A stretch of 64,000 nt of DNA, taken from Massilia sp. GTDB taxonomy: Bacteria; Pseudomonadota; Gammaproteobacteria; Burkholderiales; Burkholderiaceae_D. The DNA lies in assembly GCF_046293535.1 (NCBI RefSeq), contig NZ_JBKBOV010000025.1:6588-70587 (forward strand), given 5' to 3'. Position 1 is the stretch's first letter. Each line of letters starts with the position of its first letter. The translations under genes and the position numbers were made by a program. Positions 7,250-15,626 of this stretch are shown in pieces. Below the pieces are notes generated by a model. That model did no database searches. It was not told where the DNA came from and saw only the letters and a program-made list of their open reading frames with translations.

Positions 7250-8206
7250 TCAATCAAAGCGGCCGTGGCGCTTGAACTGCTCGGTGGCGTTCACCAGCGC
7301 GCGGGCGATGCCGGTCTCGAGGGCGCCGTGGCCGCCGTCCGGAATCATGTGCAGTTTCGCGCCCGGCCAGGCCTGGTGCAGGCGCCAGGCCGACAGCGGC
7401 GGGCAGATCACGTCGTAGCGGCCCTGCACGATGGAGGCCGGCAGGTGGGCAATGCGGCCAATGTCGCGCACCAGCTGGTCTTCTTCGAGAAAAGCGCCGT
7501 GCAGCATGTAGTGCGACTCCAGGCGGCCGACGCCGAGGTCGAGCGCATCCGACGAAGGCTCGTCCGGCTGCGGCAGCAAGAACACGCGCCGGCCTTCGAA
7601 GCGGCTCCAGGCGCGCGCGGCCGGCCAGTAGACGGCGGGATCGTGGCACAGCAGGCGTTCGCAATAAGCCTTGAGCAGGTCGCCTCGCTCGGCCTGCGGG
7701 ATCGGCGCCACGAATTCCTCGTACAGCTCGGGATAGAACCACTTGACCCCGTTGATGAACCAGTCGACTTCGGCCTTCGTGCACAGGAAGATCCCGCGCA
7801 GCACGAAGCCGAGGCAGCGCTCCGGGTGGGCCTGGCCATAGGCCAGCGCCAGGGTCGAGCCCCAGGAGCCGCCGAACACCAGCCACTGCTTGACGCCGAA
7901 CATCTGCCGCAGGCGCTCGATGTCGTCGATCAGGAGCTGGGTCGTGTTGTTGCGCCATTCGCCCAGCGGCGTCGACTTGCCGGCCCCGCGCTGATCGAAC
8001 AGGATCACGCGGTAGGCGCTCGGGTCGAAGAAGCGGCGGTGCTGCGGCGACAGGCCCGCGCCCGGCCCGCCGTGCAGGAACAGCACCGGGATGCCGTTGG
8101 GGTTGCCGACTTCTTCCCAGTAGATCGTGTGCAGCTCGTCGACGGCGAGCATGCCGTGGCGGATGGGCTGGATCGGCGGGAACAGGGACGGCGGTGTGGC
8201 AGGCAT
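7250..8206 (-). CDS. pip: prolyl aminopeptidase (proline iminopeptidase)
   Basis: LHGGPG, FDQRGAGKS, FGGSWGSTL nucleophile motif. Confidence 0.93.
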   Translation of the reverse strand: MPATPPSLFPPIQPIRHGMLAVDELHTIYWEEVGNPNGIPVLFLHGGPGAGLSPQHRRFFDPSAYRVILFDQRGAGKSTPLGEWRNNTTQLLIDDIERLRQMFGVKQWLVFGGSWGSTLALAYGQAHPERCLGFVLRGIFLCTKAEVDWFINGVKWFYPELYEEFVAPIPQAERGDLLKAYCERLLCHDPAVYWPAARAWSRFEGRRVFLLPQPDEPSSDALDLGVGRLESHYMLHGAFLEEDQLVRDIGRIAHLPASIVQGRYDVICPPLSAWRLHQAWPGAKLHMIPDGGHGALETGIARALVNATEQFKRHGRFD

Positions 8207-8260
8207 GGGACTCGGCTCTCTCGGCGGGTGGAAACCGATTGTAGCGTAGAGCCTATTCTT

Positions 8261-9583
8261 TCAGAAGAAGGTGGTCAGCGCCTCGCGCACGTTGTAGGCG
8301 TCGTCCACCGCCAGCATGACTTGCCACTTGTCGAAAGTGGTGCACGGGTGCGAGATGCCGCAGCCGACCAGGTCGCCCACCTGCAGATTGTCGCGAATGT
8401 CTCCCTCCGGCAGCGCCAGGTAGGCATGCTGGTCGTTCATCTTGAAGATCGTGCAGCCGGGTGGCAGCGCTGCGGGCGCCGCCGCCTCGCTGCCCGGACG
8501 GTGGGTGAACAGCGGCGTCGGCAGCGCTTCGTCGTAGGAGGCGTCGCGCTTGCCCATGGTGAGGATGGCCAGGCCCGGTTCGGGGCGCGACTGCACGCTG
8601 CTCCATACTTCCAGCGCCGGGCGCAATCCTTCCACGGTGTGCGCTTCGCGCGCATCGAGCTGGGCCAGCAGGCGCTGGTAGGAACCGTGGTCGCTGGTGA
8701 GGTAGCAGCCGCTGCGCAGCACGGGGCGCACCGGGCGCGACAGGCCTTCCATGCCCGCGAACCCGCGCGCCACCAGGTCGAAATAGGACGAGCCGCCGGC
8801 CGAAATCAGGATCTCGGCAGCGCCGAACAGGCCCTCGCCATCCGCCGTTTCCACCAGGTCCACCAGCTCGGCCAGGAAGGCTTTCACGGCGCGCAGGTCG
8901 GCATCGCGGTCGTCGCTGACCAAGAGGCCTTCGTAGCCTTCGAAGCCCGCCAGGGTCAGGCCATCGGCAGCGGCAATGGCGCGTGCGACCACCATCGCTT
9001 CTTCGCTCGTCCGGCAGCCGGCGCGCTTGCCGCCCAAGCCGAGTTCGACCAGCACCGGCAGGGGACGGGCCAGGCCGCGCGCGCTCATCGCCGTCGAGAG
9101 GCGCGCCACGCCCTCGATCGAGTCGGCCAGCACGAAGCATTCGAAATCGGGGTCCTCATGCAGCAGCGCCAATACCGCCTCGATGTCGGCGCGCGCCACC
9201 AGCTGGTTGGCCAGCAGCACGCGGCGCACGTTGAAGCGGTGCGCCACCTGCACCTGCGTGGCGCTGGCCAGCGTGATGCCCCAAGCGCCGTTGGCCAGCT
9301 GGGCCGCGAACAGCTGCGGGCTCATCGTGGTCTTGCCGTGCGGCGCCAGCGTGACACCGTGGCGCGCGCAGAAGTCGCGCATCCAGGCCAGGTTGTGCTG
9401 GAGCGCCGACACCTTGAGCACGGCGACCGGGAAAGAGGTGTCGCCGCGCAGCACGTTCCAGCCCTGCACGCCGATCGCGCCCTGGCGCAACGGCTCTGTC
9501 AATGGCAAGCCCTTGGTACCGGGTAGCAAGAATTGTTCGTCGAGGCTGGACAGAGCGAGGCCGTCGCGGGGCAAGGTGTGCAT
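8261..9583 (-). CDS. PLP-dependent amino acid deaminase (D-serine dehydratase/D-threonine aldolase-like, alanine racemase fold)
   Basis: LAPHGKTTMSP PLP-lysine motif, SAGGSSYFD, LRSGCY, GISHPCTTFDKW. Confidence 0.82.
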   Translation of the reverse strand: MHTLPRDGLALSSLDEQFLLPGTKGLPLTEPLRQGAIGVQGWNVLRGDTSFPVAVLKVSALQHNLAWMRDFCARHGVTLAPHGKTTMSPQLFAAQLANGAWGITLASATQVQVAHRFNVRRVLLANQLVARADIEAVLALLHEDPDFECFVLADSIEGVARLSTAMSARGLARPLPVLVELGLGGKRAGCRTSEEAMVVARAIAAADGLTLAGFEGYEGLLVSDDRDADLRAVKAFLAELVDLVETADGEGLFGAAEILISAGGSSYFDLVARGFAGMEGLSRPVRPVLRSGCYLTSDHGSYQRLLAQLDAREAHTVEGLRPALEVWSSVQSRPEPGLAILTMGKRDASYDEALPTPLFTHRPGSEAAAPAALPPGCTIFKMNDQHAYLALPEGDIRDNLQVGDLVGCGISHPCTTFDKWQVMLAVDDAYNVREALTTFF

Positions 9584-9874
9584 GAGAATCCGTTAATTCA
9601 ATAAAAGCGCTTGTCGGTTTAGTGTTAATTGCATAATTAAGAGAAAGTCTTGTTTACAAGCGATTTGCGATTACGGCAGTGTTTGATCTACTCGGCTTCT
9701 GCACACTATAAGATCATTTCTCTTTGAATTTTCTCAATATTTAAATCAACAAAAAGTTGCACTCCATCAATATAGCGATTAGATAAAATTTTATACTAGA
9801 AACTGCCAACTGACCATCTACTGATGGCAGGTCACATTGGCGCAAAATTTTAACCACTTCAAACGGAGCATAAA

Positions 9875-10054
9875 ATGCAAAATTTAAGTTCTTCTGAAAT
9901 TGATAAAATCGGCGGTGGCTATTTGCACTTGACAGATGTCGATGCATTTTTGAAATTGAATAATAATTTCAAGGGGGGCATTTTGCATGTTACACCAAAC
10001 CCTCCAGTCCGTAAGGAAAGAAATTTTCCGACATCACCAGCATTACTAGATTGA
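9875..10054 (+). CDS. double-glycine-leader peptide precursor 1 (59 aa; not in ORF track)
   Basis: Manual translation MQNLSSSEIDKIGGG/YLHLTDVDAFLKLNNNFKGGILHVTPNPPVRKERNFPTSPALLD; GGAG RBS; leader fits LSxxELxxIxGG; terminator follows. Confidence 0.7.
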   Translation: MQNLSSSEIDKIGGGYLHLTDVDAFLKLNNNFKGGILHVTPNPPVRKERNFPTSPALLD

Positions 10055-10072
10055 CTAAAGAGTGAAATCGGG

Positions 10073-10100
10073 TTGCGGTTGCTACCCAACCGCAATTTTT
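10073..10100 (+). terminator. Rho-independent terminator after precursor 1
   Basis: TTGCGGTTG-ctacc-CAACCGCAA 9-bp stem followed by TTTTT. Confidence 0.7.
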
Positions 10101-10235
10101 AAAGTTTTTGGAGAATTCCTTGAATGGAATTTTCATATAAATCCTAATAATCTAGAATCTACTTAGAGCTTTTATTCATTTGGGCAGTGCCTGGAGTAGT
10201 GAGATCATATCCTTCTGCGGCAGACCGTTGCCAAA

Positions 10236-10480
10236 CTATTGAGTCCGTTCGATCCTGATGGGCTTATCGAATGATTCTGGCCGTTCCTGCTTCCATTCCT
10301 TGAGTTCAAGAATAGGCTTTTTAAGGTCGATTACATGTTACAAATCATAGTAATTGTACGACTTCAATAGTTCACCAACATGGGCTGCAGGTTGTCCCGT
10401 TCTCGAAGCAGGTCTAGTACAGCAGGTCGCATATGCGAAACGTTGAAGAGAGCTCGTTTAGTCCCGCATGTTGCGCCGTT
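10236..10480 (-). pseudogene. possible heavily decayed IS481-like transposase C-terminal remnant
   Basis: Broken frames give RICDLLY*TCFENG and LLKSYNYYDL*HVIDLKKPILELKEWKQERPESFDKP, reminiscent from memory of IS481-family C-termini; weak. Confidence 0.25.
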
Positions 10481-10984
10481 TCACAGCGTTCGCTAATGTA
10501 ATCATATAGGTCTGACGCTTAATGATTAGCCGCGCCAAATCTTGGTGTCTGCCAAACTCTCGGGTACTACGAACTTGCGCGTGACATTATGAACTCATGC
10601 TGAAAACTGCTCTTGATGCGTTTGATGCCGCGTCTATTAACCCAATAAAGTCTTTGCGTGCAAAAAGCCAGTTACAGTAAGTTGAATTAGCACGCGAAAC
10701 AAATAATCTAATAGGTGAGCTTGCTCGTCAAGAATGTCCAGTCTTCAGCGGATACCTATCCGTTGCTGTTTTCCGCATCCAAATACAACTTTTTGTCAAT
10801 GCTTACCAAGTCTGAAGGAAAGCCTGTCATGTGCATTGATCACATGATTTGAGCCACGTCATAATAAATACTTGATTAGACAGGAGCAATGCTAACTCGA
10901 TAGATTGTTCTTTCGCAGAACGCTAACGCATATTGGAGCATGTAAAGTTGGGCTTCACATAAATTTGCATAGCGGATACATATA

Positions 10985-11029
10985 TTGCGCAACTGCAATA
11001 CCCTGTTATAAATTAGTATTATTATTATC
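10985..11029 (+). promoter_or_regulatory. candidate sigma70 extended -10 promoter for precursor 2, overlapped by a Fur-box-like 19-mer
   Basis: TTGCGC-16 nt-TATAAA with TG at the extended -10 position; AATTAGTATTATTATTATC (11011-11029) matches 13/19 of GATAATGATAATCATTATC. Confidence 0.35.
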
Positions 11030-11095
11030 TCAGCCGCGAATTTTATTGTTTGTCGGCTTTAGCAACCTCCCTACCAAATCGATGGAGAAATTAAA

Positions 11096-11317
11096 ATGCA
11101 AGTACTTAATGTTGAAGAAATCCAAGAAGTTTCTGGTGGTGTCCAGGATAAAGTCGTACCAGCTGCGTTTATTTCTGCAGGCGGATACCTTGGCAGTTAT
11201 CTCTCAGCAGCGCGCTTTGGTGCCACACTTGGGGCAGCAGCTGGGCCGATTGGCGCTATCGTTGGCGGCGTAGCTGCCGGCGTGTTCGTCTATTATTACT
11301 ACGATCAAAAGCGCTGA
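11096..11317 (+). CDS. class II microcin/bacteriocin-like precursor 2 (73 aa, GG leader, glycine-zipper core)
   Basis: Leader MQVLNVEEIQEVSGG (15 aa, ColV-like), Gly/Ala-rich hydrophobic core GATLGAAAGPIGAIVGGVAAG, GGAG RBS, upstream of a PCAT exporter. Confidence 0.85.
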   Translation: MQVLNVEEIQEVSGGVQDKVVPAAFISAGGYLGSYLSAARFGATLGAAAGPIGAIVGGVAAGVFVYYYYDQKR

Positions 11318-11395
11318 CCGAGAGCCGATTTAGGGCTGCGGTTAACTGAGGAGTCGGCTTAGTGTCGACTCTTCTTTCAATACGGTGAACTAATC

Positions 11396-11890
11396 ATGAC
11401 AAACTTAAAAGAAATTAATTCCATATCAAAAACCTACTTCCCACTTCCATTGTGGCGCTATATTTTAATTTTCCAATCTTGGCAACAGTTACTATCTTGG
11501 ATGGTTATTGTTTCAGCAACTGCGTTTTCGGTCTACTTTTTGCTAAATATTCTCGATCCTAGGTCTGTACCAATCGAAGCAATTTTGTTGGGTGTAGCTT
11601 TTGGATCTATGTTCTCAGTTATTATGGTTATTCCTGTGGAAATTCATTTCAAAGGTAAAACTAATCGCCTCACATACATTCTAGTTGAAAAGCTTTATAG
11701 CGTAGGCTACATTCAAGATTCACAGGCAGGAGAAATTACCACATTCAAACAAAAATTCTCTTCTCGGTTAAAATGGACCGAAGGAAATGTTGTAATTAAA
11801 AAACTTGATCATGAAATCGTAGTGACTGGAGGCTGGTTTATTTTGGGAAACTTACGTCGCGCTATAAAAATATCCTATTTTAAAGATTAA
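11396..11890 (+). CDS. 2-TM membrane protein, candidate immunity protein
   Basis: 164 aa, very AT-rich, two hydrophobic segments, directly downstream of precursor 2. Confidence 0.6.
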   Translation: MTNLKEINSISKTYFPLPLWRYILIFQSWQQLLSWMVIVSATAFSVYFLLNILDPRSVPIEAILLGVAFGSMFSVIMVIPVEIHFKGKTNRLTYILVEKLYSVGYIQDSQAGEITTFKQKFSSRLKWTEGNVVIKKLDHEIVVTGGWFILGNLRRAIKISYFKD

Positions 11891-12012
11891 CCTTTTATTT
11901 GTTACTTGATAAAAATATAATATATTAGCTTTATATAACGATATTCGACCTTTTTTAATTATTTGTCACAATGAGAATCCGGCAGCCAGCTTAAAAAGTA
12001 AGGAGAGATAAC

Positions 12013-13347
12013 TTGCGCGACGCCGACATCACTTCAGAAAAAACTCGGAAGAGCCTTCTCCCCGATCAAACTTCGGAATCCCCACCAAGAAGTTTGTTTC
12101 GTCAGCAAGCTATTGAGCATAGCAAGGTACGCCAATACGGAACGGTCATAGTAACCCGTCCTGTTAGCCATATAGTTCTTACTTTTATATCTATTTTCCT
12201 TGCTCTCCTGCTCATCTTGTTCTTCCTCTTTTTCGAAACAACTCGTAAAGTAATAATCCATGGCATGTTAGTCCCTACGGCAGGGGTAATCAGAGTTTTT
12301 CCTAATCAAGCGGGTATCATCAAGGAGGTCCGTATCAAGGAAGGCCAATTCGTGCGTGAAGGTGATATCCTTTTCATTGTCTCCAGTGAGCGTAGCAATG
12401 CCGAAGCTAGCTCTACCGAAGCCTTGATTTCTGACTTACTAATGCGACGACGCGAAAGCTTCCAAGCTGAGCTGCTCCAAGCTAAGGTGCAGGTCGGACA
12501 GCGCCGCGCGGCTCTTCGGCAGCGTACACATGATCTCCAAGAAGAACTCAAGCGACTTGAAACCCAGGCGCATATTCAGAAGCAGCGCATCGCCTTAACC
12601 GAGCAGGCAGTGGCGCGTTTTACGCAATTGAAGGCGACCAATTACATATCAGCAGCGCAACTGCAAGAGCGCGAAGCCGAGTTACTCGACCAGCACCAGC
12701 GCCTGTTCGAGATTGAGCGCATTCGCTCTAGCACCCAACGCGACCTAGCCAGCACTCAGGCGGAAGAACTTGATGTCGCAGTGCAGGCCCTGCGCGACGA
12801 AAACGTTCTCCGCCGCAATGCTTCCACGCTCGAACAGGATCTGACCGAGAACGAGGCGCGACGCGAAGTCTCAATACGGGCGCGCCAGAGCGGAACAGTT
12901 ACGGCAATAGCCGCCAATCTCGGCCAAACCGTCGGTATTTCCACTGCTCTAGGATCGATCCTGCCTGAGGGAAACAAGCTGGAAGCGGAAATGTATGTGC
13001 CATCGCGCGCAGTCGGCTTTATCAAACCAAGAATAACGGCCCTGCTGCGCTACCAGGCTTTCCCATATCAGAAATTTGGCCAGCATACCGCACGCGTGCG
13101 CGAAGTAGCCACGACCTCGGTGCGGCCCGAGGAACTCCCAACTTCAGCTGCGACGTTGCCGGGCGCTGCCCAATCCGAGCCGGTATATCGTGTACGGCTC
13201 GAGCTCGACCAGCAAACTGTGCGCGCGTACGGGACTGCGATGCCGCTACGTTCTGGCATGCTAGTCGATGCCAGCATCATGCTCGAACGCCGCAAGCTCT
13301 ACGAATGGGTGCTGGAACCATTGTTCAGTATTTCGGGCCGATTGTAA
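12013..13347 (+). CDS. HlyD-family membrane fusion protein (CvaA/MchE-type bacteriocin secretion adaptor)
   Basis: TTG start with AAGGAG RBS; LFRQQAI, single TM, long coiled coil, QAFPYQKFG, LRSGM..DASIMLERRKLYEW. Confidence 0.92.
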   Translation: MRDADITSEKTRKSLLPDQTSESPPRSLFRQQAIEHSKVRQYGTVIVTRPVSHIVLTFISIFLALLLILFFLFFETTRKVIIHGMLVPTAGVIRVFPNQAGIIKEVRIKEGQFVREGDILFIVSSERSNAEASSTEALISDLLMRRRESFQAELLQAKVQVGQRRAALRQRTHDLQEELKRLETQAHIQKQRIALTEQAVARFTQLKATNYISAAQLQEREAELLDQHQRLFEIERIRSSTQRDLASTQAEELDVAVQALRDENVLRRNASTLEQDLTENEARREVSIRARQSGTVTAIAANLGQTVGISTALGSILPEGNKLEAEMYVPSRAVGFIKPRITALLRYQAFPYQKFGQHTARVREVATTSVRPEELPTSAATLPGAAQSEPVYRVRLELDQQTVRAYGTAMPLRSGMLVDASIMLERRKLYEWVLEPLFSISGRL

Positions 13348-13424
13348 GCGGGCAAAGCTCGTTCCCATAAACTAGTGGCGGTAATGAGTTTTTACGGCCA
13401 GCTCATCCTGATAATAGTTAAATT

Positions 13425-15569
13425 ATGCTATTTCCCATTCTTTCCCAGCTCACGTTCTTGAACCGCCGTAGGCTACCCGTTATGCTGCAGACCGAAGGGG
13501 CAGAATGTGGCTTGGCATGCTTGGCAATGGTCGCCAGTTATTGGGGCCATCGAATAGATATTCCAAGCATGCGTCGCCGCTTCTCGGTATCGATGAAGGG
13601 CGTTAACCTGAAGGGCATGATGGCGATGGCAAACGGCCTGTCCCTGCAGACCCGCCCGCTCAAGTTGGACCTTCAGCACTTGCCTGAATTGAAGTTACCC
13701 TGTGTAACGCACTGGGACCTGAACCACTTTGTCGTGCTCAAGTCAGTCTCGGCAAAGCATGTCGTCGTACATGATCCAAGTATCGGCGAACGGCGTATGC
13801 CACTCGAAGAATTTGCCAAGCACTTTACCGGTATCGCGCTCGAGCTGACACCGAGTGCACAGTTCGAGGCCAAGGAAGAACGTCAGCAATTTTCTCTGTT
13901 CTCGTTGATGGGAAATGTGGTCGGTCTGCGCCGCAGCTTGCTCCAAGTGCTGGCGCTCGGTCTGGCCCTTCAGATCTGCGCCCTGATCGCGCCCTTCTAT
14001 ATGCAGTGGATTGTCGACGAAGCCCTGCTGGCGTCGGACCGCGACCTGATCAAGGTGCTTGGCTGCGGCTTCTTGCTCCTGGTACTGCTTCAGACCACAA
14101 TCGGCGCCGTCCGCTCATGGGTTACCACCGTGCTAGCCACCAGCCTGAACCTACAATGGCTGGGCAACGCCTTTGCCCATCTAATAAAGCTACCATTGCC
14201 CTACTTCGAGAAGCGCCATACCGGCGACATCGTCTCACGCTTCGGTTCAATCCAGCAGATTCAGACGAGCCTAACGACACAGTTTGTCGAAGGCATCATC
14301 GACGGTGTACTGGTGCTGGGCACCCTGATCATGATGCTGCTATATAGCCCCAAGTTGGCTGCAGTGGCCTGCGTTGCAGTACTGTTGTACGCGCTACTGC
14401 GTTTGGCAATGTTCCGCCCACTGCGCGATGCGAACGCCGAAGAGATCATCCATACCGCGAAACAGCAAAGCCACTTCATGGAAACTGTGCGCGGTATGCA
14501 AAGTATTCGCCTGTTCGGGCGCAGCGAAGAGCGTCGTTCAGCCTGGATAAACTCGCTGACCGACGAGTTCAACGCTCAGTTGCGTATCGCGAGGCTGGCC
14601 GTCTCGTACCAGACATCCAATACCCTGCTATTCAATGGGGAGCGCGTGATCGTGATCTGGCTTGCAGCCCTCTCCGTGCTCAGTAATGAATTCTCGGTCG
14701 GAATGGTATTTGCATTTATTAGCTACAAGGATCAGTTTAGCCAGCGAATGGCCAGTCTGATCGACAAACTGTTCGAATTACGGATGATGCGCTTGCATGG
14801 CGAGCGCGTGGCCGATATCGTGCTGGCCGAAGCAGAACCGGACGATGACGTCGTCGAAGTCGACGCAAACCAGATCATGCCTTCAATCGAGATCAAAAAC
14901 CTGAGTTTCCGTTATTCCGACAGCGAGCCCGAAGTCATCCGTGAACTCAACCTGAGCATCCCCGCTGGGCAATGTGTGGCAATTACTGGACCTTCTGGCT
15001 GCGGGAAGACGACATTGATGAAATTGCTGCTGGGCCTGCTCGTACCAACCGGAGGTGAAATTCGCATCGGGGGAGTACCCTTGGGTACACTCGGCCTGTC
15101 GAACTATCGCCGACTGCTAGGCACGGTGATGCAGGATGATACATTGTTTGCCGGATCGATCTCAGACAACATTAGTTTTTTCGATCCCCTGATCGACATG
15201 CAACGCGTCCATGTGTGCGCTGAACTAGCCGCCATCGAGCCTGAGATCTCTACCATGCCGATGGCCTTCAACACCCTGGTCGGCGATATCGGCACCGGCC
15301 TGTCGGGCGGACAGCAGCAGCGCGTCCTTTTGGCACGTGCACTGTACAAGAACCCGAAAATCTTGGTGCTTGACGAAGCGACCAGCCACTTGGACGTGTG
15401 GAATGAACAGGCTGTCAACGCAGCCATCCAGAAGATTCCACTTACCCGAATTATCGTCGCGCACCGTCCAGAAACGATCCAAATGGCAGAGCGTGTGATC
15501 GTCCTGCATAACGGTCAAGTTGCCCAAGATGTGACTAAGTCGACTCCCGAAGATAAGCAGGCAGCTTGA
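13425..15569 (+). CDS. peptidase-containing ABC transporter (C39 peptidase + TMD + NBD; CvaB/MchF-type)
   Basis: QTEGAECGLACLAM (catalytic Cys), HWDLNHFVVL (His), Walker A GPSGCGKT, LSGGQQQR, ILVLDEATSHLD all intact. Confidence 0.95.
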   Translation: MLFPILSQLTFLNRRRLPVMLQTEGAECGLACLAMVASYWGHRIDIPSMRRRFSVSMKGVNLKGMMAMANGLSLQTRPLKLDLQHLPELKLPCVTHWDLNHFVVLKSVSAKHVVVHDPSIGERRMPLEEFAKHFTGIALELTPSAQFEAKEERQQFSLFSLMGNVVGLRRSLLQVLALGLALQICALIAPFYMQWIVDEALLASDRDLIKVLGCGFLLLVLLQTTIGAVRSWVTTVLATSLNLQWLGNAFAHLIKLPLPYFEKRHTGDIVSRFGSIQQIQTSLTTQFVEGIIDGVLVLGTLIMMLLYSPKLAAVACVAVLLYALLRLAMFRPLRDANAEEIIHTAKQQSHFMETVRGMQSIRLFGRSEERRSAWINSLTDEFNAQLRIARLAVSYQTSNTLLFNGERVIVIWLAALSVLSNEFSVGMVFAFISYKDQFSQRMASLIDKLFELRMMRLHGERVADIVLAEAEPDDDVVEVDANQIMPSIEIKNLSFRYSDSEPEVIRELNLSIPAGQCVAITGPSGCGKTTLMKLLLGLLVPTGGEIRIGGVPLGTLGLSNYRRLLGTVMQDDTLFAGSISDNISFFDPLIDMQRVHVCAELAAIEPEISTMPMAFNTLVGDIGTGLSGGQQQRVLLARALYKNPKILVLDEATSHLDVWNEQAVNAAIQKIPLTRIIVAHRPETIQMAERVIVLHNGQVAQDVTKSTPEDKQAA

Positions 15570-15584
15570 CGAGGACAGTCTGCT

Positions 15585-15626
15585 AAAAAAAATGGCCCGG
15601 ACGATTACTCGTCCAGGCCAGCTTTT
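15585..15626. terminator. bidirectional terminator between the exporter and phbB
   Basis: A-tract, TGGCCCGGACGA-ttac-TCGTCCAGGCCA (1 mismatch), TTTT. Confidence 0.7.

Follow-up and report, generated by a model that had tools for sequence, protein, structure and literature searches.

What is encoded by the 73-codon open reading frame (ORF) at positions 11096-11317 of a 64,000-nucleotide stretch of Massilia sp. DNA (contig NZ_JBKBOV010000025.1; the whole stretch is referred to as the window), where it is followed by genes for a small membrane protein (the partner, 11396-11890), an adaptor and a peptidase-containing ABC transporter (PCAT)? We propose that it is probably the precursor of a one-peptide, unmodified bacteriocin of the class II microcin type that is accompanied by its own protection gene and exporter. 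The parts of such a system are present and intact, conserved, and linked to each other. A first-pass annotation of the sequence had read the locus as a glycine-zipper bacteriocin with a double-glycine (GG) leader, an exporter and an immunity-like neighbour. This outline is retained here, while the oddity it saw in the peptide tail and the parallels it drew to two-peptide systems are given up.

The peptide gene and its family

Translation of 11096-11317 (plus strand) yields the leader MQVLNVEEIQEVSGG and a 58-residue core, VQDKVVPAAFISAGGYLGSYLSAARFGATLGAAAGPIGAIVGGVAAGVFVYYYYDQKR, with YYYYDQKR as its C-terminus. The core is basic, has a computed mass of 5,847 Da (5.85 kDa) and contains neither cysteine nor a serine-rich tail, in full agreement with the initial description. 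The glycine zipper noted at that stage is likewise borne out, as GxxxG motifs start at residues 29, 42, 46, 53 and 58 and the glycines fall on one face of a helix.

The closest relative is found on four metagenome contigs (L001-L004), with 87% DNA identity to the window gene. Seventeen synonymous and eleven non-synonymous changes separate the two, corresponding to a dN/dS of 0.18. Because of this ratio, a ribosome-binding site (GGAG, spaced 8 nt from the ATG), the existence of homologues and the conservation of flanking elements (Table 1), 11096-11317 is a real gene and not a chance ORF.

A protein search with the peptide retrieved seven relatives with 52-88% identity, and a profile of seven sequences gave 23 clusters at E <= 1e-3 when run against 1.84 billion representative proteins. 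The family comprises about 30 sequences. According to the profile search, the gene occurs in nine of 401 genomes and five of 64 genera of the same taxonomic family, with a single copy in the window's own genome. Elsewhere in the order this search found the peptide essentially absent, the sole extra matches lying inside long unrelated frames, and plasmids searched by tblastn gave no match. Conservation is given below for an alignment of 33 family sequences or, where stated, for a closer subset of 22.

Two relatives carry lesions in the peptide gene. At L039 (1219-1404; genome G153) the family peptide has a 12-residue internal deletion by which the conserved AARxGAxLGxAA block is lost; the copy may be decaying or represent a naturally shortened variant. 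At L016 (1501-1734; genome G013) an in-frame TAA occupies codon 2 of the family peptide and the partner gene is intact. The sole C39 match of this genome sits in a 363-aa frame, and no full-length PCAT frame was found in the genome. It may be that exporter and toxin are decaying in G013 while the partner gene stays intact.

The leader and its predicted export route

Hydrophobic residues at positions -4, -7, -12 and -15 together with glutamate at -8 make up the known recognition pattern of double-glycine leaders. The window peptide has V, I, L and M at these hydrophobic positions and E at -8. L4, E8 and G14 are each conserved in 32 of the 33 aligned sequences, V12 in 30 and S13 in 28. With 15 residues and a GG end, the leader also falls within the definition of class II microcins by a signal of 15-18 residues that ends in GG or GA (PMC10233263).

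The PCAT aligns over its full length with PCAT1 (4RY2; E 6e-94), and ComA-type PCATs are among its structural relatives. All residues of the C39 site are in place, namely Gln and Cys in ECGLACL, His in NHFVV and Asp in HDP. The window's genome holds 18 OEP-domain matches, equivalent to at least eight OEP/TolC-family genes. The five genes of the island in which the peptide gene resides are all intact, and no modification enzyme was found among them, either in the ORF list or by scanning Pfam. Because the parts of the route are all present and intact, we infer that the C39 domain of the adjacent exporter would recognize the 15-residue leader and cut after Gly15, upon which PCAT, HlyD adaptor and a TolC-type channel would carry the core out of the cell.

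A predicted helix with a glycine stripe

Residues 41-69 are predicted to form one membrane-spanning segment, because the 19-residue Kyte-Doolittle hydropathy has its maximum (1.88) at residues 47-65. Arg40 would be placed on one side of the membrane and the tyrosines with the charged tail on the other. In the N-terminal half of the mature peptide, R40 is present in 24 of the 33 sequences and, among the 22 closest ones, in 90% or more; further conserved residues are G33 (29/33) and A39 (27/33). Within the helix (residues 42-62 read GATLGAAAGPIGAIVGGVAAG), all 33 sequences have G46, G50, G53 and G57, and 32 of 33 retain G42 and P51. On an ideal helix G42, G46, G50, G53 and G57 come to lie within an arc of 80 degrees, or of 100 degrees with position 61 included (Gly in 26/33 relatives, Ala in the window). 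A continuous stripe of conserved glycines is the result. The transmembrane glycine zipper is given as GxxxGxxxG (Kim et al. 2005, quoted after PMC13188072). We looked for a hydrophobic helix with three or more small residues, glycine among them, spaced at i, i+4 and i+8, and found G42-G46-G50 to be such a run, followed by G53-G57, which runs on to position 61.

The aromatic collar

The tyrosine-rich end had been regarded by the first-pass annotation as a peculiarity of this peptide. The alignment speaks against this, as an aromatic collar is present family-wide: position 66 is Y in 25 of the 33 sequences, position 68 Y or W in 25 (Y20, W5) and position 69 Y, F or L in 25 (Y15, F5, L5), with Tyr (11), Phe (4), Ile (4) and Val (4) at position 67. 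The consensus is Y-x-Y/W-aromatic. YYYY is limited to the clade of the window, i.e., to the five closest sequences, and more distant members carry CYYW, YMYY, YFYY, YAYL or AWAYFY at this place. What follows the collar is conserved neither in length nor in sequence and comprises 0 to about 20 residues, the longest being a proline-rich extension. Judged by the alignment, the aromatic collar is therefore a family trait and YYYYDQKR one local, clade-specific and intensified form of it.

Most likely, the four tyrosines serve to anchor the end of the helix at the lipid-water interface. Among the roles that had been suggested for them, we favor this one over a conserved receptor-binding module, because the collar is conserved while the tail is free to vary. 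The variable tail may act in strain-specific recognition. A comparable arrangement has been proposed for lactococcin G, in the model of which an aromatic-rich end resides in the interface and the cationic end is driven through the membrane by the membrane potential (PMC2850506).

At L006 (5233-6026), a metagenome contig, a second, unrelated glycine-zipper peptide with a GG leader is encoded beside the family pair. It ends in YAYDHYYGAGEKIYPQPKKLR and is preceded by a 169-aa ORF with multiple transmembrane (TM) helices. Going by this case, bacteriocin-like peptides that are unrelated to each other can share a glycine zipper with a tyrosine-rich end behind it.

The partner protein

In each of the ten family loci that were aligned, which stem from several genera, a partner homologue of about 160 aa is encoded 3' of the peptide gene and in the same orientation. 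Shared motifs are WRYxLxFQSW and LxRxLRW. At L017, the partner was missed by tblastn, although a 161-aa ORF with these motifs is present. The pairing is kept where the exporter genes are divergent (L005, L006) and also where no exporter gene is adjacent (L019, L020, L021, L023); in the latter genomes C39 domains are found elsewhere.

In the AlphaFold2 (AF2) model of the partner (pLDDT 73), TM helices at residues 29-53 and 60-76 are followed by a domain of beta-alpha-beta4-alpha topology. The charge distribution in ten partner homologues predicts an N-in/C-in orientation for all of them, pointing at a cytoplasmic location of this domain. A Foldseek search with the structure returned nothing at E <= 0.001. 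The best that can be named is a weak resemblance of the cytoplasmic domain to KA1 (E 0.025; TM-score 0.29 with normalization to the query, 0.45 with normalization to the target), which we treat as a lead only. Curated families in Pfam and NCBIfam were not matched by the protein.

The partner family is present in 47 of the 401 genomes as compared to nine for the peptide. Strong partner homologues (E 1e-35 to 1e-41) at L030, L034, L035 and L040 (genomes G353, G322, G287 and G387) have no family peptide within 1.5 kb, and such copies look like orphan immunity genes. Microcin immunity proteins have been delimited as adjacent, at most 216 aa long and furnished with TM helices (PMC12219008); the partner is adjacent, has 164 aa and two predicted TM helices. 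The immunity-like neighbour of the first-pass annotation finds support in this context. Because of the strict linkage to the peptide and the orphan copies, we consider the partner a candidate immunity protein that would protect the producer.

Two further observations concern the distribution of partner genes. At L019 (6834-8842; genome G312, same genus) the cassette occupies 7647-8450 between a gene for a PP-loop ATPase and a duplicate of the 3' end of that gene. This duplicate spans 370 nt or more, with 95% identity over 300 nt in a repeat search, which suggests that the two-gene cassette inserts on its own. Contig 3 of the window's own genome (G000; 154195-154662, L041:4196-4663) encodes a distant partner paralogue of 155 aa (E 2.4e-9). 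This gene has a host-like GC content (about 66%) and no bacteriocin gene beside it, and similar weak paralogue matches occur in about 15 of 23 other genomes of the genus that were sampled. This paralogue may represent an orphan immunity gene that has become fixed, or else the housekeeping gene from which the fold descends.

Proposed mode of action

The target of the peptide would probably be a related bacterium without the partner gene. Having reached the inner membrane of such a cell from the periplasm, residues 41-69 would insert as one helix, with Arg40 at one interface and the tyrosine collar and the short charged tail at the other. The glycine face, kinked at Pro51, would pack tightly, either against copies of the same peptide, such that a pore or leak is formed, or against a membrane protein that serves as receptor. 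Either packing would lead to the loss of membrane integrity or membrane potential, from which the presumably co-transcribed partner with its two TM helices would protect the producer.

Several points weigh against this proposal. Neither the peptide nor the family profile scores above threshold with any curated model in Pfam or NCBIfam. AF2 models the peptide as all helix with a break at residue 49; confidence is low (pLDDT 53) and the model was not used as evidence, so the proposed helix rests on hydropathy and conservation. The near-invariance of R40-G42, G46, G50 and P51 hints at a specific protein partner, since it is stricter than generic insertion into lipid would demand. Pairwise divergence of peptide and partner shows no co-variation by rank (Spearman -0.04); a Pearson coefficient of 0.69 was set aside as evidence for co-variation because it is driven by one close pair. 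Finally, a housekeeping role of the partner fold is conceivable, because a paralogue of host GC content without a peptide beside it is conserved across the genus.

A more far-reaching version of the toxin-antidote proposal can be formulated, which we regard as rather improbable. Toxin and antidote would make up a self-contained mobile two-gene cassette with a new mechanism of immunity: the peptide helix would span the inner membrane, with collar and basic tail extending to the cytoplasmic leaflet, where the KA1-like, lipid-facing cytoplasmic domain of the partner would capture the tail. The fold of the antidote would be derived from the housekeeping paralogue, which might even be the natural target. 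Immunity by tail capture would differ from that conferred by the small all-membrane immunity proteins known for microcins.

Comparison with known systems

Class II microcin systems consist of five parts, i.e., precursor, immunity protein, PCAT, a membrane fusion protein (MFP) as well as TolC (PMC10233263). In its architecture, the window locus has all those features defining a class IIa microcin that sequence analysis can address, the immunity protein being a candidate, and the peptide would be antibacterial. Its mass falls into the range of about 5-10 kDa, and the MFP and TolC-family genes indicate a diderm, Gram-negative producer. A PCAT with C39 active site and an MFP are encoded nearby, and TolC-type factors are present in the genome. 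Modification genes are lacking, as is the Gly/Ser-rich, siderophore-acceptor C-terminus that would place the peptide in microcin class IIb.

With class IIa microcins such as MccV/ColV, MccL and MccN the peptide shares the Gram-negative producer, the unmodified ribosomal product below 10 kDa, the 15-residue GG leader, a Gly/Ala-rich hydrophobic core and a five-part system with an adjacent membrane immunity candidate. The lack of cysteine is not unusual, since MccN is also free of cysteine (PMC10233263). Differences exist as well. With 58 aa the core falls slightly short of the 60-90 aa found in the ten classical class IIa examples, and it is without the long C-terminal region for uptake that MccV and MccL have. 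The system is chromosomal and resides outside of the Enterobacterales, and the partner carries a cytoplasmic domain of about 85 aa in addition.

Weak, sub-threshold similarity to two Pfam models counts in favor of the proposal. The MccV model (PF17508, cut-off 27 bits) is not matched by the window peptide, and five of the 22 closer relatives reach 16-18 bits, which is below threshold and confined to profile positions 1-48 or 1-55 of 104, i.e., to the leader and the Gly-rich N-terminus. With Bacteriocin_IIc (PF10439) the window peptide scores 16.5 bits (E 0.0087), below the cut-off of 27.1 bits, and 12 of the 22 relatives match, all scores displayed being below the cut-off. Sequence searches of the PDB with the peptide and the family profile gave chance matches, the best of which was an inovirus coat helix (E 0.45). 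A search for family motif strings found none in the papers covered, and the terms Massilia and Oxalobacteraceae are absent from two microcin screening papers. By its formal features, the closest class is that of the class IIa microcins; by sequence, the peptide belongs to no curated family, and none of its relatives reaches the threshold of MccV or another curated model.

The Cdz system of Caulobacter crescentus (CdzC/CdzD, CdzI and CdzAB; PMC5380434) has in common with the window system small proteins with an extended zipper, type I secretion (predicted here), a small immunity protein with several TM helices (a candidate here) and possibly aggregation. Cdz is a two-protein toxin held on the cell surface, whereas a single peptide and one partner are found here. 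Gram-positive class IIb and IIc bacteriocins share the GG leader, helix packing by GxxxG and, as proposed, the aromatic end in the interface and the cationic end driven through the membrane (PMC2850506). Class IIb depends on two complementary peptides; in contrast, the window system is single, Gram-negative and equipped with MFP and TolC-type genes. The likeness to Cdz and lactobin-type class IIb systems that had been drawn at the outset does not hold for their two-peptide make-up, as each locus examined has one zipper peptide. Repeated GAV/GAA-type motifs as in the window peptide, which could promote self-assembly, are furthermore found in MccAB1 from Acinetobacter baumannii and in MccE492, two secreted class II microcins (PMC13188072); a sequence relationship between these and the window peptide was not detected.

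Class II microcins have recently been shown to be abundant well beyond E. coli, and the examples tested are nearly all from Enterobacterales (PMC12219008). Against this background, the peptide family is an undescribed sequence family of a weapon type now known to be common. With the window locus, a soil-type, high-GC bacterium contributes an example that is complete, compact and, to all appearances, unmodified. Its small and well-defined family offers Arg40, the glycine stripe, Pro51 and the aromatic collar as targets for mutation, and the uncharacterized partner family with its frequent orphan copies could serve in studies on the spread of immunity genes ahead of toxins. Beyond these points, the locus leaves our understanding of such systems unchanged. 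Among the loose ends, the one of greatest interest concerns the family of the partner protein rather than the tyrosines.

Alternative explanations

The similarity to Cdz raises the question whether the peptide acts as a contact weapon that stays on the surface of the producer in the form of SDS-resistant aggregates, held together by the zipper and a tyrosine ladder, and kills touching neighbours only. Glycine zipper, export by type I secretion as well as a candidate immunity protein in the membrane are indeed as in CdzC/D-CdzI (PMC5380434), the stretch GVFVYYYY is rich in aromatic and branched residues that would be prone to beta structure, and the class II microcins MccE492 and MccAB1 are able to aggregate (PMC13188072). 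We nevertheless consider a surface-bound weapon unlikely, as Cdz requires two zipper proteins and a single one is encoded in the window and in those loci of relatives that were examined. The residues G, A, V and I account for 55% of the core as compared to 75% reported for CdzC/D (PMC5380434), and the core has a clearly amphipathic N-terminal half, Arg40 and a charged tail, in the manner of soluble secreted microcins. Aggregation could also serve a different purpose, namely the formation of fibres that build a biofilm matrix as in the case of MccAB1 from Acinetobacter, with killing being secondary or absent. GAAAG, GAIVG and GVAAG resemble the GAA/GAV-type motifs required for amyloid formation by MccAB1 and MccE492 (PMC13188072), and the tyrosine run might stack. 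Without toxicity, however, the strict linkage to a membrane partner and the orphan partner genes are hard to explain, and the sporadic distribution (about 2% of the genomes in the taxonomic family) in a low-GC island fits a competition locus better than a scaffold, so that we rate a functional amyloid lower still.

Double-glycine leaders are also carried by pheromones such as ComC, and ComA-type PCATs are related to the exporter. The peptide could thus be a non-toxic exported signal or membrane modulator, and the partner its receptor or sensor. The weak resemblance of the cytoplasmic domain to KA1, a regulatory or membrane-binding type of domain, and the conservation of a host-GC paralogue across the genus would be compatible with a function of this kind. 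The fold match is weak, though, as evident from the TM-scores given above, a 58-aa core with a complete membrane-spanning zipper helix is unlike soluble pheromones, and neither a kinase nor a regulator is encoded among the island genes. Signalling therefore appears very doubtful to us. Two relatives show signs of decay, G013 with its in-frame stop and missing full-length PCAT frame and G153 with its 12-residue deletion, and the window locus itself might be a remnant that has lost expression or export. To this we attach hardly any weight, given that the five window genes are intact, dN/dS amounts to 0.18, and the ribosome-binding site, upstream elements and catalytic residues have been kept. 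A toxic, secreted microcin-type peptide with a cognate immunity protein remains our preferred explanation.

The island and its further elements

Table 1. Coordinates of the peptide locus and neighbouring features in the window.
Feature	Positions	Strand	Basis or remark
Low-GC island with the whole cassette	9600..15620	+	GC 32-58% inside vs 64-71% in the flanks
Second ORF with double-glycine leader and hydrophilic core, probably a further cargo of the exporter	9875..10054	+	
Inverted repeat TATTGC-N6-GCAATA upstream of the peptide gene	10983..11000		conserved vs L002
5' leader block with AGCCG...CGGCT	11018..11062	+	kept in L002
Ribosome-binding site GGAG, 8 nt 5' of ATG	11084..11087	+	read in sequence; kept in L002
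Double-glycine leader, residues 1-15 (MQVLNVEEIQEVSGG)	11096..11140	+	ends G14-G15
N-terminal half of mature peptide, residues 16-40, ends at conserved Arg40	11141..11215	+	moderately hydrophobic
Predicted TM helix, residues 41-69, with stripe G42/46/50/53/57 and Pro51	11216..11302	+	hydropathy, conservation
Tetra-tyrosine Y66-Y69 (aromatic collar)	11291..11302	+	codons TAT TAT TAC TAC
Charged tail DQKR and stop	11303..11317	+	tail length varies in family
Intercistronic stem-loop with weak U-run	11348..11374	+	11-bp stem
Partner gene (164 aa; 2 TM helices, cytoplasmic domain), candidate for immunity	11396..11890	+	linkage, AF2
HlyD-family membrane fusion protein	12013..13347	+	Pfam HlyD_3, Biotin_lipoyl_2; NCBIfam type_I_hlyD 9.9e-36
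Peptidase-containing ABC transporter, 714 aa	13425..15569	+	Pfam Peptidase_C39 (1.8e-36), ABC_membrane, ABC_tran
12-bp GC-rich hairpin at the right edge of the island	15593..15620	-	terminator-like, T-run on minus strand (terminator scan)

The orthologous island in L001/L002 adjoins the same D-serine-dehydratase-like gene as that in the window. Neither bounding repeats nor an integrase turned up at the island. Scans for Rfam families and for repeats gave nothing meaningful there, and the signal in a scan for sigma-70 promoters was no higher than in shuffled sequences. The GC content is stepped, with 32-47% in the part encoding peptide and partner (11400-12000) and 52-58% in the part for adaptor and exporter (12400-15600), which suggests that an older exporter module has received a cargo module by exchange.

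Scanned in six frames, the island shows just two ORFs with a GG leader, the peptide gene and 9875-10054. The latter is devoid of a glycine zipper, and no copy of it was detected by tblastn beside family peptides in other loci. A two-peptide bacteriocin was considered and rejected on these grounds: the other ORF lies 1 kb away, is hydrophilic and is missing from the loci of relatives. The region between the two ORFs (10055-11095, about 1 kb) is AT-rich and contains no convincing ORF, Rfam match or repeats. At L013 (934-1092; genome G034) a hydrophilic, proline-rich ORF with a GG leader, MQILTSLEISKVSGG..., is located 3' of the partner gene and resembles 9875-10054.

Upstream of the peptide gene, the block 10976-11000 is near-identical in L002 and the intergenic DNA around it has diverged. 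The inverted repeat in this block is possibly an operator or promoter element, and the block at 11018-11062 may form a structure in the 5' leader of the transcript. Between the peptide and partner genes, an 86-nt region around the stem-loop 11348-11374 folds at -32.8 kcal/mol (z = -3.8 vs shuffles). The hairpin is also present in the orthologue L001 and could possibly function as an attenuator or as a stabilizer of the mRNA.

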